Shown here one piece after another: positions 14,588 to 44,882 of a stretch of DNA of 64,000 bases (position 1 is its first letter; each line of letters begins with the position of its first letter). The notes under the pieces were generated by a model. The model searched no databases. It had not been told where the DNA came from and saw only the letters and a list, made by a program, of their open reading frames with translations. The stretch lies in IMG/VR virus record IMGVR_UViG_3300019926_000016; one strand, given 5' to 3'. A program made the translations under genes and the position numbers. The stretch is from a virus.

Positions 14588-16374
14588 TTGCAAATCAGAA
14601 ACAGACAGTGACGAATCTCGAAGAGTACGACGAAACACCAGCAGGCTTCAAAGAGTATCTTCACGACCTCGGTGAAGAGATGTTCCCGTTCCCCGGCTTC
14701 CGTGAGTATCAGGACGAGATACTGTACGAGACGCTGGATGCGTTCTTCATCGACGGTTACTGGAACGTAGTTATCGAGGGTCCGACCGGCATCGGAAAGT
14801 CGCCGTTCAACGTAGCTGTCGGTCGGGTTATCTCGATTCTCGCTTCCAGAAAACGGAAGATTCAGGACTACTTTGGTATCAGTCTCCGTGGCTTGGATAA
14901 AGGCAAGTCATTCTACACAACCCCACAGAAGTCTCTTCGGAATCAGTTGGCCGACGACGATGACCTTCGAGATTACATCACGATGTTGAAGTCACGTCGT
15001 GATTACATCTGCGGAGAAACGGGAACCAACTGTGCGGAATGTATGGTCAGAGCATCACAAGACGAGTCTTGCCGAACGGTCGCTGACTGCACCTACTGGG
15101 GACAAAAAGAAGCGGCAATGAGAAGCGACATAGCGGCAATTACGTTCGCTATGCTCATTGTGGACAACTACGTTCCCGTAGAAACTGAAGACGGTGAACA
15201 GATTTCCTTCGATGACCGCGACCTCGTTGTGGTTGACGAAGGACACAACAACGAACGCCAATCATCCAGTCTCTTTGCCGGGTTCACGCTTTCTCCGTGG
15301 AGTCTTCCCGAAGAAGTCTACGACGATGCCGGAGAACAGGTTGATTGGGAAGACGACCGCTTCGAGGATGTTGAAGACATTCTCCACGAGATTCTTCAAC
15401 GAGCAGAAAATTTCGTGGATATGTACGAAAACATCGAACAAAAACAGTCCCAAGTCGAGAAGTGCGAAGATGCAATCCGCAAGATACGGTACTGTATCAG
15501 GACGGAAGAAGAAGGACGCGGTTGGGTCGTCAACATTGACGAGGTAACGATTCCCGGTACTCGCGGTCAAACGACGAAGAGCATCCAAGTGAAGCCGGTT
15601 CGAGTCGATGATTTCTTGCGGGATTTCGTCTGGTCCCGTGGTCAGCGAAGACTCATAACGTCAGCGACGATTCCTTACCGGGCTGATGTTGACAAATGGG
15701 GCGACCGAATCGGCCTCGATGATGAAGTAAAGTTCATCTCGAAGCGAACGCCGTTCCCCGAAGAACATCGGCTGATTCATCTGAACACGATGGTCGGAGA
15801 AATGGACAGTAACCACGAAGACGATAATTGGGCCGATGCAATGGCTCAAATACGGGAGATTCAGTCTCACCACGAAGGAGAAAACGGGCTGATTCACTCT
15901 GTATCGTATCCTCGGGCCGAGCGTGTTGCTGATAGTCTCGGTCGGAGCAACGTCATCTTTGATGAGAAAGAAAAGGACACGGACGCACTCATCACGAAGT
16001 GGCAGAACAGTGATAAGGACATAATGGTGTCTCCGACGATGACTGAAGGCGTTGACCTACACGGCGACCGTTGCCGTTGGCAGGTTCTTCTGAAGGCTCC
16101 GTTCGCATATATGGGAGACAGCAGAGTGTCCTACCTCACGTTAGAAAAACACGAGTGGGACTGGTACTACGAAGAGGCCGCAATCGACATCATCCAGTCG
16201 GTCGGTCGGGCTGTTCGTGGTCCTGAACCGGAAGAAGCGGCATCGTTCTACATCATAGACGAGAAGTTCGAGGACGTGATGTACCGAACGAATCCACCTG
16301 AATACTTCGTAGAGGCTGTCAGGGATGACCCTCCCGAACATTGGGAAAACCCTGAAGCCGCTCCGTGGAGATAA
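14584..16374 (+). CDS. SF2 DinG/XPD(Rad3)-family helicase with Fe-S cysteines
   Basis: EGPTGIGKS, four-Cys cluster, VVVDEGH, TEGVDL, QSVGRAVR. Confidence 0.9.
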   Translation: MIANQKQTVTNLEEYDETPAGFKEYLHDLGEEMFPFPGFREYQDEILYETLDAFFIDGYWNVVIEGPTGIGKSPFNVAVGRVISILASRKRKIQDYFGISLRGLDKGKSFYTTPQKSLRNQLADDDDLRDYITMLKSRRDYICGETGTNCAECMVRASQDESCRTVADCTYWGQKEAAMRSDIAAITFAMLIVDNYVPVETEDGEQISFDDRDLVVVDEGHNNERQSSSLFAGFTLSPWSLPEEVYDDAGEQVDWEDDRFEDVEDILHEILQRAENFVDMYENIEQKQSQVEKCEDAIRKIRYCIRTEEEGRGWVVNIDEVTIPGTRGQTTKSIQVKPVRVDDFLRDFVWSRGQRRLITSATIPYRADVDKWGDRIGLDDEVKFISKRTPFPEEHRLIHLNTMVGEMDSNHEDDNWADAMAQIREIQSHHEGENGLIHSVSYPRAERVADSLGRSNVIFDEKEKDTDALITKWQNSDKDIMVSPTMTEGVDLHGDRCRWQVLLKAPFAYMGDSRVSYLTLEKHEWDWYYEEAAIDIIQSVGRAVRGPEPEEAASFYIIDEKFEDVMYRTNPPEYFVEAVRDDPPEHWENPEAAPWR

Positions 16375-16381
16375 ATTAACA

Positions 16382-16636
16382 ATGACAGACCTACAATCCA
16401 TCAAAGCACAAGCGAGTCGAATCGGCGCGATAATCCATTGCCCGGAGTGCAGTCACGAAGAAGACTTCTCGGCGTTCCTCGAACGGGACACCCGCATTGA
16501 CGAAGAAGAAAAAGAAGTAGATTTCGGTTGTCCCGAGTGTGGCAACGATACTGTTAGCCTCGGGAAGCGGCGGAGGGGGAGCCTGAACATCGTCGTCAAT
16601 GGCCTCGAAGAGATGGAACAACTGGCAGATGAGTAA
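16382..16636 (+). CDS. zinc-ribbon protein
   Basis: CPEC...CPECG. Confidence 0.65.
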   Translation: MTDLQSIKAQASRIGAIIHCPECSHEEDFSAFLERDTRIDEEEKEVDFGCPECGNDTVSLGKRRRGSLNIVVNGLEEMEQLADE

Positions 16637-16829
16637 AATGGGAAAGAATCTACCACCCGGCGTCTCGATTAGCGACTCAGATGCACCGTGGAATCAAAGA
16701 CACCCGGAACCGGGTGACATCAACGTAGAATGTAAGTCCTGTGACTTCAGAGGGAAACTGTTAGACACACCACGAGATGAAACGCTTACCTGTCCAGATT
16801 GCGGTGAAGGGGTGATAAGGTCAGGTTAG
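16629..16829 (+). CDS. zinc-ribbon protein
   Basis: NLPPGV...CKSC...CPDCG. Confidence 0.65.
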   Translation: MSKMGKNLPPGVSISDSDAPWNQRHPEPGDINVECKSCDFRGKLLDTPRDETLTCPDCGEGVIRSG

Positions 16830-16870
16830 TAATTAGTTTTATATCATCTGAGAGTTAATTTGTAACGACT

Positions 16871-17116
16871 ATGGAAAGAGCATCATTGCTAATCATAGTT
16901 GGCGTTCTTCTCTTGGGCATCGGAATTTCGATGTCTCCGACGAACACTACTACCAGTACGAGTTGTAGTGACTACGATATTGGAGCAGACGAGGTAAGTT
17001 GTGAAGGAACGAGCGTCACAAAAGAAACGTCACGGAATCAACTGAAGTACCCGACAATGGCAGTCGGATTCGTAGTTGGGATTGTCGGGTTCTCGATTGC
17101 GGGAATGAAAGATTAA
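16871..17116 (+). CDS. small membrane protein (2 predicted TM segments)
   Basis: Hydrophobic N- and C-terminal stretches around a Ser/Thr-rich loop with 2 Cys. Confidence 0.65.
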   Translation: MERASLLIIVGVLLLGIGISMSPTNTTTSTSCSDYDIGADEVSCEGTSVTKETSRNQLKYPTMAVGFVVGIVGFSIAGMKD

Positions 17117-18117
17117 TCTATGTCGAACATTTCCCGCCGCAGTTCTCGCTTCTCACTCTCGCTCCGAGCGTCGTAGTGCTTTTCGAGAACGTCGGTAGAC
17201 ACGTCCATTCGGTCGCTCACCAGTTCTTTCGAGTGACCCTCGTTGAGTGCTTCTGTGATGGCACTCCGACGAAGTGGATGCGGTGAGACGGACCCCGGAC
17301 ACTGCGCGGCTTTCGAATACGCCGTCGCTTCACAGTCCTCGATGCTCCGGTCGTAAGGACAGTCGTTCGAGTATTCACAGGGTCGGGTCATCAGTCGAAC
17401 CTGCTTGCGAAGCGTCGTTCGATGCGCTCTGCCTTCTTTAGTCGTGAACAGTGGTCGGCGTCCTTCCTCGTCGGTGACTTCGTGACGGCGACCGTCGATG
17501 TAATCGTCAACGATAACGCAGACCCATTCGTGAAGATTCAACTGCCGTTCGGCAGGGTCTTTGTTCTTCAGTGGCGTTCCCGAGTCGGGACGATGGACCG
17601 CTTCGACGTACATATCCTCACTGTGGTAGTCCCGAAGGTCGAGAGCGCGAGCAGTTCCAATACGCATCCCTGTCGTCCACAGGAGAGCAAACAGGACGTG
17701 CCGCATCGAAGCGTAGTCGTAGGTCCGTAGCTGGTTCAGCAGGTCGTCAGCGTGGTCAGCATCCAGCGTGTCGTCTTTGCTTTCGTTCTCTACCTCGGGC
17801 ATCATTATGTCCTGCGCCACGTCTTCGAGTAAGTCGCGGCTCTCACACCACTTGATGAAGACCCGAAGGGTAGTCATCTGGTTGTAGAGGGAGATGTTGC
17901 TAATGTCGTCTTCGTCACGGCGGTAGAGTTGAAATTCGGATAGCTCCCAGTTGCCTATTTCTCCGACCTTCTCGGGTCTTTCAGGGTCGTCGTGACACCA
18001 ATCGACAAACTGGGTGAGTTGAGACGAGTGATTGTAGAGCGTGGAGTCGGACACGTCGGCTTTCCGTTCTTTAAGATACCGTTCTACGGCGTCGGAAATC
18101 GTAAGATTCCGGTTCAT
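17113..18117 (-). CDS. int: tyrosine recombinase/integrase (SNJ2-like haloarchaeal type)
   Basis: Catalytic R (TGMRIG), K (PLKNK), HPLRR and Y (EKHY); N-terminal core-binding domain. Confidence 0.9.
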   Translation of the reverse strand: MNRNLTISDAVERYLKERKADVSDSTLYNHSSQLTQFVDWCHDDPERPEKVGEIGNWELSEFQLYRRDEDDISNISLYNQMTTLRVFIKWCESRDLLEDVAQDIMMPEVENESKDDTLDADHADDLLNQLRTYDYASMRHVLFALLWTTGMRIGTARALDLRDYHSEDMYVEAVHRPDSGTPLKNKDPAERQLNLHEWVCVIVDDYIDGRRHEVTDEEGRRPLFTTKEGRAHRTTLRKQVRLMTRPCEYSNDCPYDRSIEDCEATAYSKAAQCPGSVSPHPLRRSAITEALNEGHSKELVSDRMDVSTDVLEKHYDARSESEKRELRREMFDID

Positions 18118-18179
18118 TGGTTGCCTGAATCGCGGAATCGGTCTATTCTCAGCGTGACAACCTTGCGGAGCGGAGATTG

Positions 18180-18205
18180 AGGCGGTTCAAATCCGCCCGA
18201 ACCCA
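18180..18205 (+). mobile_element. putative attP core: 3' end of a tRNA gene
   Basis: GGCGG-TTCAAAT-CCGCC-CGAACCC-A (T-arm plus acceptor 3' strand) with no matching 5' half; about 60 nt upstream of the int start. Confidence 0.7.
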
Positions 18206-18422
18206 CCTCGCTCCCTCCGGTCACTCACGTAGACAGCACCGCCGCCGTCTTGCGATTTAGGGGGTAAGCCGTCACGCATTTCAACCGGGGACCTCCCCCG
18301 GCCTCCTTTCGTCCCGCGATTCTCCAACAAGTAGTTATTCGAAGGTAAAAAAGGCATCGTGCGTCCCGGTCACTGCAAAAGTCACCTCACTTTCGATAAA
18401 CCGTATGACGCGATACAGAATT

Positions 18423-18908
18423 TCAGCCCGAGAATAGTTCACCTCTCAAGTGCGACGAAAGGTAATCGAACGCTTTCTGTTCTGCTCTTTGCCGAGAACC
18501 AGCGAAGATAAATTCGACGTTGTAGTGTCTCTCCCACGTATCTACGGTCCCGAAGACTTGTGATTGAGTCACGTCGTAATAGTTCAAGAAGTAATCATCG
18601 TGATACCGAGACGGATTCCGTGGTTCCTCGATGATGACCTTTAACGGCGTCTCCCACGACTTCGCCCGCTTGATTTCGTTCTTGAACCGTTCCCGGTTGT
18701 GAGTGATGCTGGAAATGAAATCAGAACCAGACTTCCGCTCGATAGCATACTCGGGATAATACGTGTCGTTCTCTTCTTCGTGAGAACAGAACTGAGCAAG
18801 CGTATAATCCCCAGTATTTAGCGTCTCGTCAACGACCGTCGCATCGAATCCATCGAAGTTCCATCCCTTCTGCTCTCTCGTGTCCCGTAGAATTTCGAGA
18901 GTCGGCAT
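18423..18908 (-). CDS. ERCC4/XPF-family nuclease
   Basis: DTREQ, GDY, IERKSGSDF. Confidence 0.85.
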   Translation of the reverse strand: MPTLEILRDTREQKGWNFDGFDATVVDETLNTGDYTLAQFCSHEEENDTYYPEYAIERKSGSDFISSITHNRERFKNEIKRAKSWETPLKVIIEEPRNPSRYHDDYFLNYYDVTQSQVFGTVDTWERHYNVEFIFAGSRQRAEQKAFDYLSSHLRGELFSG

Positions 18909-19393
18909 CAGAGATTAATCCTCCCACGGATTTTTTCGATGATGGACACAAGTTGGTCATCTTCGTAACCGATTTCAGAACCAACTCTATCGAACACAGC
19001 ATCATCAGGAGTGTTCTGGTTCGGATAATACCGACTTCCATCGGGAACATCATCATTGACGACTAACACACAGACAGCGAAGATGATAGCGTCAACATTC
19101 CATCCGATACTGCGAACATCGAGCGTGTCGAAGAGTTTCCGTCCTCGCTTCTTTTGATAGTCGTTGAGTCGAAGCGTAGACGAAAGGGAATCGAAGCGAT
19201 GAAGATTGTCTTGACGACGAACAACTTCTTTGTTTTCCCGTTTCGGGCCGTTCCACGTTCCGGTGTTGTAAGCCCTGAATCGTTTGAACTTGTATTGTTT
19301 GTGTGCCGGTGCTTCATCTGGTTGAATTGTCGTTGCGTTATTCGTGTCACTCGTTATGACATCGGGTGGTTTCTTTTCCTCTGGATATTCCAT
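18908..19393 (-). CDS. hypothetical protein, possibly a cyclin/TFB-repeat-like helical fold
   Basis: FDSLSSTLRLNDYQKKRGRKLF...IIFAVCVLV pattern; fold is a weak inference. Confidence 0.55.
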   Translation of the reverse strand: MEYPEEKKPPDVITSDTNNATTIQPDEAPAHKQYKFKRFRAYNTGTWNGPKRENKEVVRRQDNLHRFDSLSSTLRLNDYQKKRGRKLFDTLDVRSIGWNVDAIIFAVCVLVVNDDVPDGSRYYPNQNTPDDAVFDRVGSEIGYEDDQLVSIIEKIRGRINL

Positions 19394-19515
19394 TTAGAAA
19401 TTACAGACAGAGATAGTCAACATATTGCTGTAACCAGTGTAGAAGTCTCTCTACCTACTATAATAACTATACTACACTACTGTCGGCCTACTGGTCCCAG
19501 TATAATATTGAAAGT

Positions 19516-19558
19516 ATAGTAGGGAAAGAACCGAGAAGGGCGGAAGTAAACCCGACTA
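19516..19558 (+). repeat. 43-bp direct repeat, copy 1
   Basis: ATAGTAGGGAAAGAACCGAGAAGGGCGGAAGTAAACCCGACTA, identical to 44775..44817. Confidence 0.9.
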
Positions 19559-19684
19559 TACTTTACCTCTATACTGGTAACACTGTTGTACTCTGTCCTC
19601 ATTAAACAATTAGTCTGAAAAGACTTAAAGATTACGACTTGACTCTTACAGAAGGGTTAAGTCAATGGAGAATAGAAAACAACT

Positions 19685-20224
19685 ATGGATACAAAAGAGA
19701 TAACTCAATCAACGACAGAACAGGATAGTGTGAACGATGAACAGATAGCGCATCTCGCTGGCTTCTTCGATGCGGCTGGAAACATCTCTCTCAGAGTGAC
19801 AAAGGACGAAGACTACCGACTCGGATTTACGCTCCGTCCGATTGTCAGGGTCTTGCGACCAAATGAAGAAGACCCGATACTCGGGAAACTAATGGAATAT
19901 GCCGATGACGAAGCCGTGAAATACAGTCTCACTGAGATTTCTCACGGCGGCGGTGGTTCAAGCACCGGATTTGTGATTACTGATACTGACAGCATCGAAC
20001 GGTTCCTCGAACCGATGTTCGAGTATATGGTCACTCAGTATATTCGAGCGAATATAATGCTCAACGAAATTCTACCGGAATTAGAAGACGGTCAACACCG
20101 AGAGAAAGAAGGATTCGTGAGGCTCGTCAGTATCGCTGACGACATCCGTAGAGAATCTGCTTCGAGCAAGAAGGTCAAATACACGGAAGAATACTTCCGT
20201 GAGATGTGGTCAATCCCCGAGTAA
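19685..20224 (+). CDS. single-motif LAGLIDADG-family protein, probably catalytically inactive
   Basis: LAGFFDAAGNISL...YRLGFTLRP aligns with I-CreI-type motif; the catalytic acidic position is Ala. Confidence 0.75.
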   Translation: MDTKEITQSTTEQDSVNDEQIAHLAGFFDAAGNISLRVTKDEDYRLGFTLRPIVRVLRPNEEDPILGKLMEYADDEAVKYSLTEISHGGGGSSTGFVITDTDSIERFLEPMFEYMVTQYIRANIMLNEILPELEDGQHREKEGFVRLVSIADDIRRESASSKKVKYTEEYFREMWSIPE

Positions 20225-20833
20225 CATCTTCTCGGCTCTGTCGGCTTCGTCATCGAGTCCTTGTTCTCGAAGACCCTCGATGTACTTCCGCACCTTCTCG
20301 GTGTCCAACGACCCGACTTTACTCTGCTGAGTGGCGGCTTGGCGGCGTTCCGTCGATGGCATCTGTGTCGGTTCTTCGACCACCTCGATAACGTTCTCGT
20401 TCTCGTCAACGTGAACAATGGCGAAGTCTTCGGGTTCGTGTTGTTCTGGTGCGTCTTCGGGATGATTCTTCCGGCCTGCTACTTGGCCGAGATGAATCAT
20501 TACTCCGTGTTTCCCTCTGAATGGCCGCTCACAGTATGGACATAGCCGTGCCACCTGTTCGGAATTTCGTTCAGATGGGTACTTCATCTCAACTTCTCTG
20601 GTTCCAATCTCTTCCGCGTCTTCGAGGCTAATCCCTTCGGGGATTTCTCCCTGCGTTCCGTGACCGTCACCGGAACTTCTGGAGACGTGAAGATGAAGAC
20701 CCCGAGAAAGGACTTCTTTCTCACATCCCTCTACGGGACAACGTACTGTTGTCTCGTCGTTTTTGTGCTTAACCGTCTTGCCGTTGCCATCAGATGCCAT
20801 TGAGGTGTACTCGTATTCAAAGAAAGAGTCCAA
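20210..20833 (-). CDS. tandem C2H2-type zinc-finger protein
   Basis: CPVEGC...LHLHVSRSSGDGH and CPYC...MIHLGQVAGRKNH; probable start ATG 20800. Confidence 0.75.
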   Translation of the reverse strand: MDSFFEYEYTSMASDGNGKTVKHKNDETTVRCPVEGCEKEVLSRGLHLHVSRSSGDGHGTQGEIPEGISLEDAEEIGTREVEMKYPSERNSEQVARLCPYCERPFRGKHGVMIHLGQVAGRKNHPEDAPEQHEPEDFAIVHVDENENVIEVVEEPTQMPSTERRQAATQQSKVGSLDTEKVRKYIEGLREQGLDDEADRAEKMLLGD

Positions 20834-21185
20834 TCACTTAAGTCCTAACAATCGTTTAACACAAACGGTAGTTTGAACGACAGGAAAAGACGGTTCCGAA
20901 GACTTGATTCCGAAGGAGTTAAGTCAATGGACCCCGTTTAGTGTAGTAGGGAGGTCGGAAAGACAGGCTACCGCCGCTTCTCGACCACCTATTCCGGGGT
21001 CGGAACCCTCGCGGGTCACTCATCCCGATACAGTCCATTTCGAAGTCGGGGCTTTCCTCCCCGCCACTCTCAAAACTTAAGAGAGTGAAGACTGTACGGG
21101 AGACTGAGGGCTATTCGCCCTCGGAAGGTTGTGTCCCGCCACTTCGGTTGGGATTCACGCGGGGTCTGGTCGCCCCGCTCTTCGT

Positions 21186-21260
21186 GCTTGCGAAGCTGAC
21201 TGGTTCAGCACAGCCCATTTGTAAGGCTGAGTTGGGTGCGTTCGAATCCACCCGCAAGCT
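21186..21260 (+). tRNA. tRNA-Thr(UGU)-like, atypical
   Basis: Acceptor GCTTGCG/CGCAAGC, D-stem GCTG/CAGC, anticodon stem CAGCC/GGCTG with a 9-nt loop CATTTGTAA, bulged T-stem. Confidence 0.7.
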
Positions 21261-21420
21261 TTGCCGTGTTGGACTCTCCGTGGTCTGACTCGGTTTTGAG
21301 AACATCACGGAGAGGTGACGCCCGACGCCTTCACCTATTCTGGACCAGTGGGAGAAAAACCACAACGGTATCGGGAAGGAGAGCCGTTGCCCGCGATACT
21401 CCACACTAAAGAAAGGGCGA

Positions 21421-21494
21421 CGGAACCAACTTCCACGCGGCAGGAAACGTGGCTGTAGACCACGCCGTTCTCGGTTCGAGGCCGAGGGTTCCGA
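21421..21494 (+). tRNA. tRNA-Tyr(GUA)
   Basis: Acceptor CGGAACC/GGTTCCG (C1-G72, A73), CGTGG-CTGTAGA-CCACG, CTCGG-TTCGAGG-CCGAG; lacks U8. Confidence 0.8.
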
Positions 21495-21619
21495 CTCGAT
21501 GGTTTGCTCGACCTGAGCCACAATAGAGAATGGTAAAATCTGGATAGTGGCGTATCCTATGCCGACGCCAGTGACATACCGGGATACCGGGAAGAAACGT
21601 TTGGCGTCTCATAAATACC

Positions 21620-21692
21620 ACGGGAGTAGGTTAGTTCGGCCAAACTTCCTGCATTGGCGCAGGAGCCTCGGGTTCAAATCCCGGCTTCCGTA
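21620..21692 (+). tRNA. tRNA-Pro(UGG)-like, atypical
   Basis: Acceptor ACGGGAG/CTTCCGT, T-loop TTCAAAT, anticodon stem CCTGC/GCAGG with a 6-nt loop ATTGGC. Confidence 0.65.
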
Positions 21693-21693
21693 T

Positions 21694-21774
21694 TGGAGAT
21701 AGCCGAGGCGCACGGCTTGGCGAAAGTATTGCACCACTGAGTGCGCTAACGGGGTTCGAGGCCCCAGTCTCCAC
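21694..21774 (+). ncRNA. degenerate tRNA-like element without a recognisable anticodon arm
   Basis: TGGAGAT/GTCTCCA, GCCG/CGGC D-like arm, GGGG-TTCGAGG-CCCC T-arm. Confidence 0.5.
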
Positions 21775-22211
21775 TCACCCCATCAGGAGTGACATTCCGA
21801 GATGGGGGCGTTCTGCGGCGTCTCGACTGCCACTGTGGAGCCTATGCCACCTCCACCGCTGGCCGGTCAGACAAAATATCCCGAACGACAGAGCGGGATT
21901 TATGAATAAAGTATGTTGAATTGTTAAATACGTTCTCTGTCAGGAGGTGCTACGATAAGTTCAATGACAAATCATAGAACTGGGTCATAAACGGAACCGT
22001 GCAGGGTGAACCGACGCCGAGCGGCGTGTCTCAAGCTGACCACACGAATAAGTGGCGATAAGAATTGCGACACCCACCTATGCAGAATATTATCTCTAAG
22101 ACTCTTCTTGCCGTCGTTTCTTCTTCTGTATGGGCTTCACAACCCACGACGGCCTTGACGCCGACTCCTAATCAGACGGGGTAAGCACCGGGCGTCTAAA
22201 CAAATTCGGAC

Positions 22212-22285
22212 AGTCCCGTAGGGTAGCAGGCCAATCCTGTTGGTCTTTGGAACCAACGACCTCGATTCAAATTCGAGCGGGACTA
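22212..22285 (+). tRNA. tRNA-Gln(UUG)
   Basis: Canonical cloverleaf AGTCCCG/CGGGACT (A1-U72), TTGGT-CTTTGGA-ACCAA, CTCGA-TTCAAAT-TCGAG. Confidence 0.9.
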
Positions 22286-22350
22286 TTGGCCGACTCAATT
22301 GGCGTTGAGAGTCGGAAACCTCACCCAACATTACGCCACTTAAGTTACCA

Positions 22351-22878
22351 ATGACAGCAATAATCGCACTGGTCAGTGGAATCGTGAACAAATTCTCGGC
22401 GGGTAGCAATGAAGTTCAGAACGGAGCCGCCGCAGTTCGGCAAGCAATCGGAGAAGTCGAAGGTCTTCAAGAGGCTGATTTCACCGCCGTTCTCGGTGAA
22501 CCAGAGATTGTGGATAACGGGAACGTGTTCTTCACGGACCCGAAGGTAGCAGTCCCGGTCAAAGAGTCGCCGTATGACAGTTTCGACCGTCTGATGTTCG
22601 ACCTGCCTCGTGGCAGAACCGACGAAGAGTCTACGTTTTTCGAACTTCTCGATTTCTTCGGACTGGACTTCGAGACGATGGAGCAGTTGGAAGATGGAAT
22701 GATTCCAGTCTTCTACGCTAAAGGATGCTTCAATATCGACTGGGATAACCTCGATAATGGCGAAGAAGAAAACCCGGATACGGAAAACGATTCTGACACT
22801 GGAACCGATGAAGAGTCAGATAGTGCCGTCAACGTCGAAGAAACGACCATTAACTCGGGTGAAGACGAAGATGCCTAA
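22351..22878 (+). CDS. hypothetical protein
   Basis: 175-aa ORF with an acidic tail. Confidence 0.75.
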   Translation: MTAIIALVSGIVNKFSAGSNEVQNGAAAVRQAIGEVEGLQEADFTAVLGEPEIVDNGNVFFTDPKVAVPVKESPYDSFDRLMFDLPRGRTDEESTFFELLDFFGLDFETMEQLEDGMIPVFYAKGCFNIDWDNLDNGEEENPDTENDSDTGTDEESDSAVNVEETTINSGEDEDA

Positions 22879-23002
22879 CTGCCTCTGCGAACCCTGCGGC
22901 GACCACTGTTCCTGTCGGTGCCACGAGCGAAACCGGGAGACAACTTCCTCCGCCCTTCTCGAATCTGACCCTACGATTTCGAGAGAGCGGCCATTAGGAT
23001 GA
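22871..23002 (+). CDS. small Cys-rich, metallothionein-like protein (43 aa)
   Basis: MPNCLCEPCGDHCSCRCH. Confidence 0.45.
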   Translation: MPNCLCEPCGDHCSCRCHERNRETTSSALLESDPTISRERPLG

Positions 23003-23154
23003 CCTGCTACGCCGCTCGGGGGTCGTGGCCTGCGGTCAAACTTCCGGGTTTCCCTCGATTCCGACTCCCCGTGCGAGCGGGCGAGTCTGCGTAAACTTCC
23101 CTGCGGTGCTGGTTGAGAGATTGGTGTACGGCGGTTCGATTCCGTCGCTCTCAC
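22982..23154 (+). ncRNA. about 170-nt RNA with a tRNA-like domain
   Basis: GAGAGC/GCTCTC acceptor-like helix, GGCGG-TTCGATT-CCGTC T-arm, TACGCC/GGTGTA helix enclosing about 100 nt. Confidence 0.5.
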
Positions 23155-23285
23155 TTGAGGCCAAAGACTCGAAGCGCGAGAGTGGAGTCATACCAAAAGA
23201 CTCAAGCCGATGGGCCTCAACACTTTGAGTGAAGCACGTTGACGCTCGAAGTGGCGGTTCCGACAACGTGACACAACCTAAAACA

Positions 23286-24407
23286 ATGTCCCGATACGAC
23301 AACAGCGGCAACGGCGGTAGTAGCGGCGATTACGAAAACGATACCACGGTCAAACTCCAGAAGTACGCAACTCTGCGTATGGAGCCTGAAGCCGTGAAGA
23401 CTTCGAGCCACGAACAGTACGGTTCTTCTTTCATCGTCAACTTCGATGCGATGGAAGTCGTGGACGGCATCGTGTTCCAGCGAGAAGACAAGCCGCAGAC
23501 GGTAAAGGTCTTCTCTACGGACAAGTTCTTCAACCTCAACCCCGAGGATGGGCTTGTCTACGAGAACTTCAATGAAGAAGACGGCTACTCCGGTCAGATG
23601 TCTGCACAGGACATTCTCGACCACCCGCGAGTGGCTGGTTTCTCCGAGACGTTCGCTGGCGTGGATTACTTCTACAAGCCTCTCGGGGTCGTCATCGAAG
23701 AGGCCGGTGAAATCGCCACGAATGACGAACTTGAGGTTGAAGTTACCGACGACGGTACTATCGACCTTGAAGATTCCTCGATGCTCTTGTCGAACAAGTC
23801 GTGGACTCGGACGTTCGCCAAGAAACTCACCGAGGAAGGCGACGGCATCATCAACGACAACGGGAAAGACGGCGACGAGCGCGACGAAAATCCCAAGTAC
23901 GACGCTCACGAGTGGTTGGCGACAGACGAACCGACTCTTCGGAGTCAGTTGGAAGGCCGGTCGCTGGAACTGTGGGTCACTGAAGAAGAGATGGAAACCG
24001 AAGACGGAACGCAGACCTACGGAACGCCGAACCTGCTCGATGTGAAGACCGGGAACTTCGTCACTATCGACAACGGAATCTCTGACGGTGACAGTGATTC
24101 TGACGCCGACGCTGATGGCGAAAAGGCCGCCGCGACTGATGGCGGTACGAAGGCCGATTCCGGTACGGTCGAGTCGGATACTGACAGTCCCGAAACGACT
24201 GATTCGCCTGATTCGGCTGACGATTCATCTGGTCTTCCTGATGGCGTGCCGGACAGTCTGGAGAAACTAATCGACTACCTTGCCCGGAACGACAACGGTG
24301 ACGTGACGGCAGAGGATGTTCGTGACTTCTCCGAAGACGAAGTGGAGAACCCGGACGAAATCGACTGGGAGGCCGCCGCAGAAGAGGCCAACCAGCGGGC
24401 TGAGTAG
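23286..24407 (+). CDS. acidic hypothetical protein heading the replication operon
   Basis: Start at ATG 23286; acidic, low-complexity C-terminal part; an SSB/recombination role is a positional guess only. Confidence 0.8.
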   Translation: MSRYDNSGNGGSSGDYENDTTVKLQKYATLRMEPEAVKTSSHEQYGSSFIVNFDAMEVVDGIVFQREDKPQTVKVFSTDKFFNLNPEDGLVYENFNEEDGYSGQMSAQDILDHPRVAGFSETFAGVDYFYKPLGVVIEEAGEIATNDELEVEVTDDGTIDLEDSSMLLSNKSWTRTFAKKLTEEGDGIINDNGKDGDERDENPKYDAHEWLATDEPTLRSQLEGRSLELWVTEEEMETEDGTQTYGTPNLLDVKTGNFVTIDNGISDGDSDSDADADGEKAAATDGGTKADSGTVESDTDSPETTDSPDSADDSSGLPDGVPDSLEKLIDYLARNDNGDVTAEDVRDFSEDEVENPDEIDWEAAAEEANQRAE

Positions 24408-24644
24408 ATGACAGACCGTTCAGAGACGGTAGAAACCGTCACGGTGTCGGCTTCGAGGAAGGTTCAGTTGGACTCTTACGAGCCGATTGAAGCCTACGTT
24501 GCTGAGGAACACAGTGTTCCCGACGACGTGGACTACGAAGAGTGGTTGGACGAGCGACAGGACGATGTGATGGCCGCCGCTGAAGAAGCGGCGATGCGGC
24601 GTCACGAAGAGTGGGTAAGGGAGGAAGCCTTCGGAGATGACTAA
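24408..24644 (+). CDS. hypothetical protein
   Basis: 78 aa, abuts the previous stop. Confidence 0.7.
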   Translation: MTDRSETVETVTVSASRKVQLDSYEPIEAYVAEEHSVPDDVDYEEWLDERQDDVMAAAEEAAMRRHEEWVREEAFGDD

Positions 24645-25194
24645 CGAACCCGGCTACCGAGACGCTGATACTCTCTCCCGACTCTACCACGACGAGGGTC
24701 TGAAACAGCGAGAGATAGCCGAGCGTTTCGGGGTCGGGCAAGGTGTTATCTCCGATTGGATGTCTCGTCTTGACATTCAATCCCGAAACCAGTGGGAAAT
24801 CGAAGATGAAGACGCACTTCGAGAACTGTACCACGATGAGAATAAGTCGCTTGAAGAAGTTGGTGAAGAACTTGATGCAAGTGCAAAAGCAGTGCAACGG
24901 GCTATGGAGCGGTTCGAGATACCGCGACGTGACCCAAGACACACAAGAGATGCACCGACTCTCTATGTGAATGATGGGTACAAAACTTGGCACATTAATG
25001 ACTGGAACGACCAGTATAATGTCCGAGTCCATCGGCTTGTGGCTGTTGCAGAACACGGCTATGAGGCCGTGAAAAGTAACGTAGTACACCACAAGAACCG
25101 ACACAAATGCGACAACCGGACTGAAAATCTGGAGTTGATGACACAGGCTGAACACAATAGAGAACACTCCGAAGAAGCGTTCGGTGACGACTGA
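24637..25194 (+). CDS. HNH endonuclease with tandem N-terminal HTH repeats
   Basis: RVHRLVAVAEHG...VHHKNRHKCDNRTENLELMTQAEH; two LYHDE...E(I/V)xE HTH units. Confidence 0.88.
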   Translation: MTNEPGYRDADTLSRLYHDEGLKQREIAERFGVGQGVISDWMSRLDIQSRNQWEIEDEDALRELYHDENKSLEEVGEELDASAKAVQRAMERFEIPRRDPRHTRDAPTLYVNDGYKTWHINDWNDQYNVRVHRLVAVAEHGYEAVKSNVVHHKNRHKCDNRTENLELMTQAEHNREHSEEAFGDD

Positions 25195-25236
25195 CGTAGC
25201 GAAATAGCATAGCGCGGCAACCACGACCTTCTGCCT

Positions 25237-25299
25237 CTTCACGGGCCGGTTCAAAGATAGAGATACCCCCGTTCTCTATCTTGCCGAACGCCCGTGAAG
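25237..25299 (+). other. long intergenic hairpin
   Basis: CTTCACGGGC/GCCCGTGAAG closing AGATAGAGA/TCTCTATCT. Confidence 0.6.
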
Positions 25300-25316
25300 T
25301 GGCGAGACACAACCCA

Positions 25317-26783
25317 ATGAGTATCCAAGAGTACGACAATCCGACGCTGTACGAAGTATCGCAGTTGCGCGAAGATTGGGGTCTTGCTGGTGAAGAAGAC
25401 ACGCACCTTGTGGTGTTCCTGTCATTCTTCGGCGGCGGCTTCGTCGTGATGACCGGACTCTCTTCAGGCGGGAAAGACGCAGTTGTGAACGCGGCTGAAT
25501 ACTGCGTTCCCGATAACTGGGTCTATCAGATTCCCACCTCAATGAGCAAGACGGTTCTCTACGAAGACGCAAACGCAATCAACGCCTGCCCCGTCCATCG
25601 CCACAAAGACATTAGCAACATCGCCGGAAAGGATTGGCTGGAAGACATTTGGAAGCGGCACGGTGACGGGAATCCCATCAGTCACTCTTACACTGAGGTA
25701 ATGGGAGAAGAACGAACCACCGTCACGCAGACGTTGATGCCGCCAAACTGTATGATTCTGTTCCTTGCTTCAGACAATGAGCAGGTGGACATCAACGATT
25801 ACGCTGAAGTTCGGAACCGTGCCCTCGTTCTCGGGATTGACGATTCACAGGGACTCACCGAACGTGTGAACGAACGGCAGGCAAAACAGGAGGCCGGAAT
25901 CATCGAGTACAACATCGGTGAAGAACGGACGAAAGAAATCCGTGAGTACGTTTCTACGATTCCGATGCACTCCTACGGCGACGATGACCCCGGTGGATTC
26001 CTGAACCCGGTAATGCCTGCACTGGATAACCAGAACCCACTTCCACAACACTTCACGGAAGCACGCCGCGATTTCCCTCGGTTGTCTGACTTTATGAAGA
26101 GTGTTACGCTCTTCCACTACGACGACCGTATCGAGGTTCCGCAGAAGATGTGGAATGGAGAAAACCGAATCGACAACGACGTGACGCTTCTCGTCACCCC
26201 GGCTGACGCTTGGCTTGGGATGCGGGTCTTCGGTGAAAAGATGGTCCTGTCGGCTCTGAACCTTCAGGATAAGGACTTTCACCTTCTCGATTTGCTCCGT
26301 GACAATTACGGGCAACAGTTCGATGTTGGGTCGCTTCAGTCGATGATGCGACAGCGAGGGTGGAATATCACCAACAGCGACGTTCGTTCGTCGTTGAAGA
26401 ATATGAAGACCAAAGGGTACGTCCGACCCGATAAGTCCGTTACGCCGCACGAATGGACTGCCTCGGAGTTTGCCAAGCAGGTTCGTCGTGACGTGAATCT
26501 GGATTGGCCGACCATCATCGAGGATACCCGTAAACTGGTTCACGAACACTATCCGAAACCTGTGGCAATGGACTACGAACAGCAATTCCTCGAAGGCGAC
26601 GGACTGCTCGTTACCCATCCGTTCGAGGGTTACACAGTGAACCTCACGGAAGAAGAAGCAAACGAGTTAGAGCAAAAAGTCGAAGAACAAGAAGAAAAGG
26701 AGAAAGACGCCTTCGAGGGCGGAATGTACGACGATGACGACGATGACAATGACCAAAGCGGTTCACAGGGTACTCTGGTATGA
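25317..26783 (+). CDS. P-loop NTPase, putative replicative helicase
   Basis: Walker A TGLSSGGKD, conserved RAL arginine, C-terminal wHTH-like segment, adjacent to the primase; start ATG 25317. Confidence 0.65.
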   Translation: MSIQEYDNPTLYEVSQLREDWGLAGEEDTHLVVFLSFFGGGFVVMTGLSSGGKDAVVNAAEYCVPDNWVYQIPTSMSKTVLYEDANAINACPVHRHKDISNIAGKDWLEDIWKRHGDGNPISHSYTEVMGEERTTVTQTLMPPNCMILFLASDNEQVDINDYAEVRNRALVLGIDDSQGLTERVNERQAKQEAGIIEYNIGEERTKEIREYVSTIPMHSYGDDDPGGFLNPVMPALDNQNPLPQHFTEARRDFPRLSDFMKSVTLFHYDDRIEVPQKMWNGENRIDNDVTLLVTPADAWLGMRVFGEKMVLSALNLQDKDFHLLDLLRDNYGQQFDVGSLQSMMRQRGWNITNSDVRSSLKNMKTKGYVRPDKSVTPHEWTASEFAKQVRRDVNLDWPTIIEDTRKLVHEHYPKPVAMDYEQQFLEGDGLLVTHPFEGYTVNLTEEEANELEQKVEEQEEKEKDAFEGGMYDDDDDDNDQSGSQGTLV

Positions 26784-26938
26784 CTGACCATCCCTACGCA
26801 GTCGGCAACACTCTGACTCCGGGCCAAGTAGCGGAAGATGACCCAATGAGTGAGAAAGAGCGTTGTCCAAACTGCGATGAACTGGTTGAATTGACTCCCG
26901 AAAACACCTGTACGAAGTGCGGTAAAGAGGTACGTTGA
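26780..26938 (+). CDS. small CPxC-CxxCG zinc-finger protein (52 aa)
   Basis: CPNCD...CTKCG; coupled at both ends. Confidence 0.6.
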   Translation: MTDHPYAVGNTLTPGQVAEDDPMSEKERCPNCDELVELTPENTCTKCGKEVR

Positions 26939-28161
26939 TGGACTTTCAGAAATCTCTCTGGAAGGCAAGTACCGTCTTTGCTCCTGACTTTCCGCGTCAG
27001 GTTTCATCAGGAACGACAATTCAGGAGCGCGTAGACCGACAGGTAGATTTCTGCGAATCTCTGGAACAGGCAAGAGAAAACGGGATGCCGGGGTACTACT
27101 CGGTCTATTCGTTCCCTCGGGGACACTCGAAGGACGGAAAAATCCCGAAGGTCGATTGTGTCTTCATCGACCTTGATATTCCGGGCGACGACTACGACCC
27201 GGAACAAGAAAAGACCGGCTTCGATGCGTGGGAACGTGAAATGAGTGCGTTGCTTGCAAGAGCGCGTATGATTGCTTCCGCCATTATCGAGTCGGATTCT
27301 GCGAACCAAGACAACTTCAGAGTGGTCCTATCGGGTCATAAGGGACTTCACATCTATCTCGATTTCCCGACTATCTCTACGAACAACGGCGACTTCCATC
27401 AATTCAAGAACGGTCTGAAGAGTTACGGCGACAACATTATGTCGTGGCTCGATTCAATCGCCGGAGGCGTCAACATCGACTCGTGGGTTGACGTAGACGC
27501 TTCGGACCTCGGGCGGTTGGCACGTCACCCCAACACCGTGCATCACGGTGCAGAATACGATGACACGGAACGGTGGTGCGTTCCGATAACGATGGAAGAG
27601 TTGTCTGAACTTCGGGTTGAAGATTACTTGGACTACACAGAGTCGCCGCGTTGGATAAGTGGATACAGTAGGAATCCATCCGAGAACGCCGGAGAAAAGG
27701 TCGTACAGGCAATCAGAACAGCATCGTCTACCGGAAGCGATTACTCTAACAACGGTTCTTCTGACACGAGTTACCACGATTCTGAGGCCGTAAGCAATTA
27801 CGGCGATAGAGTAAACGAAGAAATCACTCTCGAAGACGTGGCATTTCTCACTTCAAACAAGCCGTGCATCGAGGCGTTCCGAAACCGGGATGACGCCTTT
27901 AACCACGGCAACGCCTCACACCTGATGGAGTTGAACATCATCGGTCGATTCGTGGAGATGGGCGTCCCGCGAGACGTTATCCACAATTTCTTCTCCACCC
28001 TTCCCGGTTACAGACAAGACTACACTGACAAACAGATTGACGAAGCAATTGGCAGGGAGTACAGGGAGTTTAATTGTAACAAGATAGCAGAACGTGCCGG
28101 GATGTTCTGTCTCGGTGACGGTTGTTCTGTCTATCAGCGGAACGACGACATCCAGAAATAG
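26938..28161 (+). CDS. archaeo-eukaryotic primase with fused PriL-like Cys-rich C-terminal domain
   Basis: FIDLD, SGHKGLHIY, RLARHPNT; C-terminal KPCI...FNCNKI...FCLGDGC. Confidence 0.85.
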   Translation: MDFQKSLWKASTVFAPDFPRQVSSGTTIQERVDRQVDFCESLEQARENGMPGYYSVYSFPRGHSKDGKIPKVDCVFIDLDIPGDDYDPEQEKTGFDAWEREMSALLARARMIASAIIESDSANQDNFRVVLSGHKGLHIYLDFPTISTNNGDFHQFKNGLKSYGDNIMSWLDSIAGGVNIDSWVDVDASDLGRLARHPNTVHHGAEYDDTERWCVPITMEELSELRVEDYLDYTESPRWISGYSRNPSENAGEKVVQAIRTASSTGSDYSNNGSSDTSYHDSEAVSNYGDRVNEEITLEDVAFLTSNKPCIEAFRNRDDAFNHGNASHLMELNIIGRFVEMGVPRDVIHNFFSTLPGYRQDYTDKQIDEAIGREYREFNCNKIAERAGMFCLGDGCSVYQRNDDIQK

Positions 28162-44753: not shown

Positions 44754-44774
44754 GGACAGTACAATACTGAAAGA

Positions 44775-44817
44775 ATAGTAGGGAAAGAACCGAGAAGGGC
44801 GGAAGTAAACCCGACTA
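44775..44817 (+). repeat. 43-bp direct repeat, copy 2
   Basis: Identical to 19516..19558; followed by pyrimidine-rich and TACTA tracts. Confidence 0.9.
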
Positions 44818-44882
44818 ACCTTTACCTTTATCTTTTACCCTCTTTTACTACTATATACTATACTACTATAAAGACAAAAAGA

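Follow-up and report, generated by a model that had tools for sequence, protein, structure and literature searches.

A nuclease-degenerate LAGLIDADG protein encoded in the divergent control region of a haloarchaeal tailed virus: a domesticated core gene and possible transcription regulator

The IMG/VR record IMGVR_UViG_3300019926_000016, a stretch of 64,000 nucleotides that was analysed at its full length and is referred to here as the window, corresponds essentially to the complete genome of a haloarchaeal myovirus of the Hafunaviridae type. Its left arm contains a free-standing gene for a LAGLIDADG-like protein, and an earlier reading of the sequence alone (the original prediction) proposed that the catalytic residue of this protein has been replaced and that it may be a domesticated regulator. 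Here, we describe a computational analysis of the gene, its relatives and its genomic setting. It is highly likely that the protein is not a canonical LAGLIDADG nuclease and that it is the product of a domesticated core gene. The best explanation of the observations as a whole, to which we assign a probability of about 0.5, is that it is a catalytically dead, homodimeric, DNA-binding core protein, most likely a transcription regulator.

Fold and active site of the LAGLIDADG-like protein

Both fold and profile searches place the protein in the LAGLIDADG superfamily. Its match to the Pfam family PF00961 (LAGLIDADG_1) exceeds the cut-off by a narrow margin (24.6 bits against 23.1), the match to PHROG 12980 has an E-value of 3e-44, and a family profile matches the I-CreI and I-MsoI chains with E-values of 5e-23 to 1e-11. 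An AlphaFold2 model built on the family alignment has a predicted local distance difference test score (pLDDT) of 91 and a predicted template-modelling score (pTM) of 0.83, with helices at residues 11-31, 64-75 and 101-114 and strands at residues 32-40, 48-58, 81-86 and 92-98. The best Foldseek matches of this model are the homodimeric endonucleases I-CreI (E 1e-9, TM score 0.83), I-CvuI and I-MsoI and the archaeal I-Vdi141I, with TM scores of ~0.83 on the target and root-mean-square deviations of 2.5-3 A over ~158 residues. PADLOC returned only generic 'HEase' models for the protein. The likeness to the I-CreI group includes size, the LAGLIDADG interface helix, the structural Asp (D18 of I-CreI, D29 here) and a C-terminal Lys-Tyr loop. 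However, sequence identity is ~20%, and the equivalents of the I-CreI residues D20, K98 and Q47 are Ala, Gln and Arg, respectively.

These replacements were located by two kinds of alignment. In the motif LAGFFDAAG, the residue at motif position 8, which corresponds to I-CreI D20, is Ala31 (codon GCT, 19775-19777), and Asp29 (codon 19769-19771) stands at the structural D18. Alignment by phmmer to I-OnuI-type chains places Ala31 opposite the catalytic Glu, and a profile of 67 family sequences aligns it with D20 ('LAGvfDaagsi' versus 'LAGFVDGDGSI'); the same profile shows Arg58 in place of Q47 and Gln118 in place of K98. The protein thus lacks the D/E at motif position 8 as well as the K98 and Q47 residues of an active enzyme. 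Two elements of the original prediction, the LAGLIDADG identity of the protein and the Ala at the position of D20, are accordingly borne out, the first by the structural model and the second by the phmmer and profile alignments.

The loss of the active site is a property of the family. An exhaustive phmmer search yielded 282 cluster representatives at E <= 0.001, and all relatives closer than ~E 1e-20 lack D/E at motif position 8, having A, S, G, I, V, K, R or T instead. This holds for both halves of tandem two-domain relatives; a more distant clade, of 200-260 aa, retains D/E. Of 172 full-length domains, 46 bear D/E at the catalytic position and 126, including all near relatives, have a non-acidic residue there. 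The original prediction had named as evidence against itself a family whose members mostly keep D/E at this site, and these counts point the other way. The K98 position is Lys in 43 of the 46 D/E-bearing domains versus 23 of the 126 non-acidic ones, and the Q47 position is mostly Gln in the former group and mostly Arg in the latter. Conserved in both groups are the structural Asp, the C-terminal Lys-Tyr loop and a Phe/Trp core. The interface residues A25, G26 and D29 are nearly invariant, and D29 is the sole nearly invariant acidic residue of the dead clade; because it is equally conserved in the D/E-bearing enzymes, its role is taken to be structural. When the acidic or non-acidic state was mapped on a tree built without the trait columns, 4 changes were required, versus 40.6 with shuffled labels. 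The dead active site is old and inherited, and is no one-off decay.

The D/E-bearing sister clade (P0061, P0068-P0072, P0080 and others; L040:8151-8777, plus strand) has an architecture of its own, in which an extra short N-terminal LAGLIDADG helix of the GFFDGEG type precedes one complete domain with its own D/E motif.

The putative DNA-facing surface of the dead clade was compared with that of the D/E-bearing clade. The 179-residue protein is acidic overall (pI 4.6; 36 D/E versus 20 K/R). Across the dead clade, the outward beta1-beta2 positions 33, 35, 37, 39, 55 and 58 are acidic in 0-6% of sequences, positions 40, 55 and 58 are basic in 60-74%, and Lys165 of the C-terminal loop is basic in 88%. 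The beta1-beta2 face is at least as basic in the dead clade as in the D/E-bearing clade. We consider it likely, from this pattern of conservation, that the protein would bind DNA as a homodimer through the canonical saddle.

Conservation of the gene, its cassette and its cellular relatives

The LAGLIDADG-like gene (phrog_12980) is part of a cassette in which an ERCC4-type nuclease gene and a hypothetical gene (phrog_12649) are followed, on the opposite strand, by the LAGLIDADG-like gene and then by a converging zinc-finger gene (phrog_14797). This order is retained in 11 of 12 related loci and is found in HF2, HRTV-8, HCTV-8, HRTV-26 and Serpecor1. In HRTV-25 and HRTV-27, which represent the most divergent genera, the LAGLIDADG-like gene is divergent from the hypothetical and ERCC4 genes, with one small extra gene between. 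By tblastn, 53 phage records contain an orthologue. The viruses are all tailed and have Halorubrum, Haloarcula or Haloferax as host, and every record has a single copy that aligns over at least 80% of the query. The hypothetical gene, the divergent neighbour, was found in these 53 records too, distributed identically over organisms and hosts, and is the most persistent partner of the LAGLIDADG-like gene. When haloarchaeal chromosomes were inspected, 7 of 20 copies lay inside Hafunaviridae-like proviruses, and these keep the hypothetical gene in 7/7 cases, the ERCC4 gene in 6/7 and the zinc-finger gene in 3/7.

Neither an intron or intein location nor the sporadic presence expected of a mobile element was found, the gene occupying the same slot among the 53 matching records. 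Flanking genes are intact and syntenic in relatives, and no group I intron context was seen around the open reading frame (ORF), although no dedicated Rfam scan was run. In both respects the gene differs from those of the I-CreI group: it is a syntenic viral core gene, neither intron-encoded nor sporadic. Most likely, it is a fixed core gene of the Hafunaviridae and not a mobile homing endonuclease. The absence of an intron or intein context had been part of the original prediction, as had the divergence of the gene from the ERCC4/integrase arm, and both statements hold; the hypothetical, ERCC4 and integrase genes are all on the minus strand.

The best protein relatives are metagenomic (44-53% identity), and megablast of positions 15000-27000 against phage records gave no DNA-level match. 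The window protein represents a separate, uncultured lineage. HrrHF2_220 of halovirus HF2 and the other Hafunaviridae orthologues have the same cassette and orientation at 28-38% identity and are true orthologues; the window protein differs from this group in an 18-residue N-terminal extension and in a sense-oriented promoter box directly upstream of its gene. The LAGLIDADG-like and zinc-finger genes converge with a 3' overlap of 15 nt in the window (20210-20224) and of 4 nt in HCTV-6, HSTV-4 and HF2. Since the 3' ends overlap in every virus examined, the two transcripts would be mutually antisense.

The ratio of nonsynonymous to synonymous substitution rates (dN/dS), computed from annotated coding-sequence coordinates, is 0.04-0.09 within alleles, as low as that of neighbouring genes, which indicates that the gene is maintained by selection and is not decaying. 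Together with synteny and the concurrent alteration of K98 and Q47, this purifying selection agrees with the proposal that the gene is domesticated and not freshly decayed.

Two alleles of the gene, 58-61% identical, are present in the genus Haloferacalesvirus. Across these alleles (HSTV-4, L002; HRTV-8, L048; HF2, L013) the flanking genes are 84-99% identical. Between HSTV-4 and HRTV-8, for example, the ERCC4 and cyclin-box (hypothetical) proteins are 99% identical and the zinc-finger protein 94%, versus 61% for the LAGLIDADG-like protein. The exchanged block consists of the ORF and ~70 bp upstream, and HRTV-8 and Serpecor1 are nearer to HF2 within the ORF than in the flanks. When the sequences were compared by eye, outward beta1-beta2 positions differed between alleles at 7 of 10 sites and inward positions were conserved. 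Such differences would be expected if DNA specificity had changed, but a change in specificity is not separable from linkage, because a single exchange event is involved.

Orthologues are annotated as 'endonuclease domain protein', 'LAGLIDADG endonuclease' or 'HNH endonuclease'. The last of these is used by RefSeq NC_021335, NC_020159, NC_062763 and others and by PHROG 12980, and the fold is LAGLIDADG, not HNH. With respect to activity, the published labels ('LAGLIDADG/HNH endonuclease', 'DNA cleavage') are probably mistaken, and we found no paper that notes the loss of the active site in these orthologues.

Beyond the viruses, a family member is present in 35 of 401 sampled Halobacteria genomes, and several cellular relatives are composite. 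Four proteins of ~490-520 aa (P0073, P0160, L042:7930-9480 on the minus strand and L043:7770-9263 on the plus strand) consist of two non-acidic LAGLIDADG domains and a C-terminal HNH_2 nuclease, an architecture for which no description was found in the literature. In such proteins the cutting would be done by HNH_2 and the dead module evidently serves to read DNA, which independently favours a DNA-binding role for this module. In P0078, two dead domains are followed by possible TFB-like repeats (Pfam E 0.003, sub-threshold; atlas scores 0.82-0.85); hhalign of this C-terminal region against the family of the divergent neighbour gave a probability of 0.3, and a PDB sequence search found no TFB.

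Two further arrangements were seen in haloarchaea. Tandem dead-LAGLIDADG proteins of 329 and 365 aa are encoded in operons (L044:4984-12621 and L045:8443-14041) with a PbeC/DndD-like ATPase (PADLOC E 8e-231, L044) and small proteins, and in L044 also with a HATPase-DNA methylase fusion; these operons look like a variant defence island. On another haloarchaeal chromosome, two convergent paralogous dead-LAGLIDADG genes (L029:8106-8588, plus strand; L029:9213-9686, minus strand) adjoin the genes for a 627-aa protein and for a tyrosine integrase 54% identical to that of the window; the second copy has one TAA stop inside the wider genome-search match.

The divergent control region and its neighbours

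The left arm of the window carries small early genes and genes for a Rad3-like helicase, the cassette, tRNAs, a PAS-domain protein, a PD-(D/E)XK nuclease, ThyX, PolB and RtcB, and the right arm encodes baseplate J, sheath, capsid and portal proteins on the minus strand. The features discussed here are listed in Table 1.

Table 1. Positions of the LAGLIDADG-like gene, its neighbours and candidate control elements in the window
Feature	Position	Strand	Basis or remark
Tyrosine integrase	17113..18117	-	Pfam, PHROG; adjoins the cassette here and in HCTV-6, elsewhere in HF2-type viruses
ERCC4-type nuclease	18423..18908	-	Pfam ERCC4 E 3e-14; intact GDY...ERKSGSD motif
Hypothetical neighbour, probable single cyclin-box (TFB-like) protein	18908..19393	-	phrog_12649; 'hypothetical' in all records
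AT-rich divergent control region	19394..19684	.	Between cyclin-box and LAGLIDADG-like genes; counterpart of the HF2 bidirectional promoter and IR1c region
75-nt direct repeat, copy 1	19498..19572	+	Candidate protein-binding or promoter element
AAGACTTAA, alpha-like motif	19620..19628	+	Resembles HF2 alpha motif CTAAAGACTTAGAA
GTTAAGTCAATGGA, beta/TATA-like box	19656..19669	+	Exact repeat with 20918-20931; resembles HF2 class I beta motif TCTTTAAGTC
LAGLIDADG-like gene	19685..20224	+	ORF; 179 aa, single domain, I-CreI-like, degenerate active site
LAGFFDAAG motif codons (L24-G32)	19754..19780	+	Sequence, alignments, family tally
Zinc-finger (CxxC/C2H2-like) protein	20210..20833	-	phrog_14797 E 6e-65; DUF7410 and zf-C2H2 hints
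IR2 homologue	20918..20955	+	Beta box GTTAAGTC and gamma-like CGTTTAGTGTAGTAGGGAGG; conserved in HCTV-6, comparable to HF2 IR2
75-nt direct repeat, copy 2	44757..44831	+	Other strand-switch region, junction of early/middle and late arms

The gene is preceded by an AT-rich region (GC 36-42% at 19300-19800 versus ~51% for the window), as the original prediction had described; it is the most AT-rich region of the left arm. This region contains an imperfect 31-nt palindrome (19448-19478 / 19499-19529), an alpha-like motif and a beta/TATA-like box. The TTAAGT of the GTTAAGTCAATGGA box starts 28 nt before the ATG; given this spacing and that of HF2, where the TATA starts at -26, a near-leaderless mRNA is predicted. 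The alpha-like motif AAGACTTAA occurs 5 times in the window (3711, 6042, 10260, 19620 and 36466), always on the plus strand and in the left arm, against an expectation of 0.41, and 5 copies were reached in 0 of 100 shuffles. As the HF2 alpha motif is dispensable for basal promoter activity, the alpha-like motif is a candidate regulatory site. The two copies of the 75-nt direct repeat are 92% identical, with 43 nt exact. The element after the zinc-finger gene, the IR2 homologue, is predicted from its motifs to be a rightward promoter for the tRNA and middle-gene block.

After copy 2 of the 75-nt repeat are C-separated AT blocks (CTTTACC, TTTATC and TTTTACCC) that resemble the class II late-promoter repeats of HF2. 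The 43-nt exact repeat was considered as a mini-tRNA and rejected, as no acceptor-stem pairing was seen by eye on either strand.

These elements have counterparts in HF2, where class I intergenic repeats, composed of alpha, beta/TATA and gamma/transcription-start-site motifs, carry promoters, and where nt 17022-17068 form a 'complex bidirectional promoter' with 12-bp repeats spaced 14-15 bp (Russ, Pfeiffer, Dyall-Smith; PMC8707807). Sequence-specific viral factors have been proposed to act on HF2 promoter elements (PMC8707807). The 292 bp upstream of HrrHF2_220 contain the bidirectional promoter together with a 9-bp inverted repeat and IR1c, and IR2 comes after the converging zinc-finger gene. 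The first two class I repeats thus flank the HF2 gene pair, which is located where the repeat-free early region meets the repeat-controlled middle region.

In HF2-type viruses (L013:1752-1778 and its equivalents in L002, L048 and L051) a GC-rich hairpin directly precedes the start codon; the window has no such hairpin. The hairpin shows compensatory changes (CCGGCCC/GGGCCGG versus CCACCC/GGGTGG), with a G-U-compatible variant in HRTV-8, and because G-U pairing can accommodate the changes, the hairpin probably forms in the RNA of the 5' leader. The hairpin was rejected as an allele-specific operator, since it tracks the phylogeny of the flanks and not the LAGLIDADG allele.

The divergent neighbour is probably a TFB-like protein with a single cyclin box. 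Its AlphaFold2 model (pLDDT 73) gave a VIA-align list whose top 38 rows comprise cyclin C, TFIIB/TFB, Brf, Orc6 and Rb with Z-scores of 8-10.5, and a Foldseek list with weak E-values led by TFIIB/TFB complexes. Such Z-scores need caution for all-helical proteins, which is why the assignment is rated only probable, and a profile of the neighbour family found no match to PDB by sequence. The N-terminal ~50 residues are disordered and contain a conserved SDTxNAT motif. On the strength of this model, the neighbour may be a virus-encoded truncated TFB.

Possible functions of the protein

In the mechanism that we infer, from dimerisation and DNA binding to regulatory role and targets, the inactive I-CreI-type protein would form a homodimer, and the beta-sheet saddle of this dimer would bind, but not cleave, a specific site of ~20 bp in DNA. 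The early/middle arm has its main divergent control region at this gene, a location that would suit a virus-encoded transcription regulator; the targets would be the control region of the gene itself and possibly the two copies of the 75-nt repeat and the IR2 homologue. The protein may be the kind of sequence-specific factor postulated by Russ et al. (PMC8707807). A regulatory role is favoured because the first and second class I repeats lie on either side of the gene and a probable TFB-like gene is its divergent neighbour; for a transcription regulator of viral promoter repeats in particular, we put the chances at even or slightly less. The repressor or origin-binding protein of the original prediction is a proposal consistent with the basic saddle, the HF2 promoter repeats and the TFB-like neighbour.

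The original prediction took WhiA as its precedent. WhiA is a two-domain LAGLIDADG monomer in which an added C-terminal helix-turn-helix (HTH) binds DNA and the beta-sheet surface is no longer uniformly basic; like the window protein, WhiA/DUF199 has lost acidic and basic catalytic residues and is encoded by a vertically inherited non-nuclease gene (PMC3384342). WhiA therefore stands as a precedent for the reuse of a dead LAGLIDADG fold, but the fit is not close: the window protein is a single domain and presumed homodimer, has no HTH, has a basic saddle, and is viral and archaeal. The WhiA family was not among its Pfam matches, and no sequence relationship was detected. Other precedents for homing-endonuclease folds in nucleic-acid binding or regulation are the nuclease-dead maturases (e.g. 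bI3) and I-TevI, which acts as its own repressor. They differ from the present case in that maturases are intron-encoded and bind RNA through another surface, and in that I-TevI is a catalytically active GIY-YIG enzyme.

Several observations weigh against a DNA-binding regulator of this kind. A candidate operator or target site was sought in the upstream and repeat elements and was not found. The class I alpha/beta inverted repeat is not supported as a target, as its 8-bp arms and 15-bp spacer span ~31 bp, compared with 22 bp for a typical LAGLIDADG site, and as it does not differ between viruses with one protein allele and those with the other. Within the 35-60 bp exchanged along with the allele, inspection by eye gave short pseudo-palindromes that were marginal at best, and the window shows no enrichment of the pattern TTAAGTC-N12-TTTAGT. 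Nor does the saddle fully match that of I-CreI, since the equivalents of the beta3 residues R68 and R70 are non-basic and position 84 is acidic in 72% of close relatives, and WhiA shows that a dead LAGLIDADG domain can pass DNA binding to another domain. The orthologue of HRTV-27 (Minorvirus; L053:1605-2117, minus strand) has the motif VAGVFDAEH, with Glu at position 8; here His replaces the usual Gly after the Glu, the K98 equivalent is Gln, and no other Hafunaviridae representative that was read has an acidic residue at this position. The postulated factor could equally well be the zinc-finger or the cyclin-box neighbour. Finally, the HF2 promoter repeats are active in Haloferax without any viral factor (PMC8707807), so a regulator would not be required for basal activity.

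Alternative roles keep the dead dimer and change its partners or its target. As a targeting subunit of a two-part nuclease or recombination machine, the dimer would recruit the ERCC4 nuclease, for example to genome ends or to replication and recombination intermediates. The ERCC4 protein has 161 aa and an intact motif, lacks an HhH2 DNA-binding domain of its own, and is linked to the LAGLIDADG-like gene in 11 of 12 viral loci and in most proviruses; moreover, cellular relatives fuse the dead module to an HNH nuclease, and the cassette lies in the DNA-metabolism arm beside the Rad3-like helicase. We nevertheless regard this role as unlikely. The two genes belong to transcription units that diverge, provirus L037 has no detected ERCC4 homologue beside the gene pair, and a tight complex is awkward to reconcile with an allele swap that left the ERCC4 and cyclin-box proteins of HSTV-4 and HRTV-8 nearly identical.

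Similarly speculative, and in our judgement improbable to about that degree, is a joint promoter-recognition system of the dead dimer and the TFB-like protein. The LAGLIDADG-like protein would read a virus-specific site in the promoters that carry repeats, TBP and RNA polymerase would be contacted by the truncated TFB-like protein, and host transcription would thereby be redirected from early to middle genes, in an archaeal counterpart of T4 MotA/AsiA; the exchangeable alleles, with their different DNA-facing residues, would then be determinants of specificity or immunity, like lambdoid immunity regions.

If the protein were instead an origin-binding protein or an accessory of replication initiation, its binding sites would be the AT-rich repeats of the two strand-switch regions. 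The low GC content of the region, a 75-nt repeat common only to the other strand-switch region, the iteron-like 12-bp repeats of HF2 with their 14-15 bp spacing, and the lack of any Orc/Cdc6 or MCM match among 20 large window proteins scanned against Pfam would all suit this role. Yet the HF2 repeats carry promoters (TATA boxes) with mapped start sites, and the GC-skew turn in the window merely follows transcription direction, which together leave an origin role quite improbable. A protein-protein scaffold that binds no nucleic acid, with the cyclin-box or zinc-finger partner contacting DNA, would have WhiA as precedent and would account for the non-basic beta3 positions, and P0078 may fuse two dead domains to TFB-like repeats. 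That fusion is below the significance threshold, however, and the beta1-beta2 face and C-terminal Lys-Tyr loop are basic and conserved, so that a pure scaffold is distinctly improbable.

We consider it very improbable that the protein is still an endonuclease, with a non-canonical active site and a role in homing, host-DNA degradation or counter-defence. In favour of this are the GenBank/RefSeq annotation and the 'DNA cleavage' listing in a 2025 preprint, the resemblance of the gene-sized allelic exchange to homing-endonuclease turnover, and the Glu of HRTV-27. Against it, three catalytic positions were lost together in 126 domains, the nearly invariant D29 fits a structural role, the gene has a fixed and not a sporadic slot in every virus, and relatives had to add an HNH domain; in addition, PDB entry titles name the I-CreI mutants D20N and Q47E crystallised bound to DNA. 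Nor does much speak for an RNA-binding, maturase-like protein that aids the RNA processing of the genome (tRNAs, RtcB), which we think scarcely credible: nuclease-dead LAGLIDADG maturases are known, the gene adjoins the tRNA cluster and RtcB is encoded, but no group I intron lies in the vicinity, it is the DNA saddle that has been preserved, and the family also occurs in proviruses and cells without such RNA elements.

To our knowledge, the regulation of archaeal tailed viruses is almost unknown. The present analysis names a concrete candidate for the factors postulated to control the HF2 repeats and flags its cyclin-box neighbour as a possible viral TFB-like protein. It corrects the annotation of a gene that belongs to the core set of the largest family of archaeal tailed viruses. 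Furthermore, it adds a presumably homodimeric, HTH-less, virus-encoded example to the few domesticated LAGLIDADG proteins, one whose dead module has been recombined with HNH in haloarchaea. Should tight DNA binding without cleavage prove to occur in high salt, the protein would also provide a natural halophilic "dead meganuclease" scaffold.

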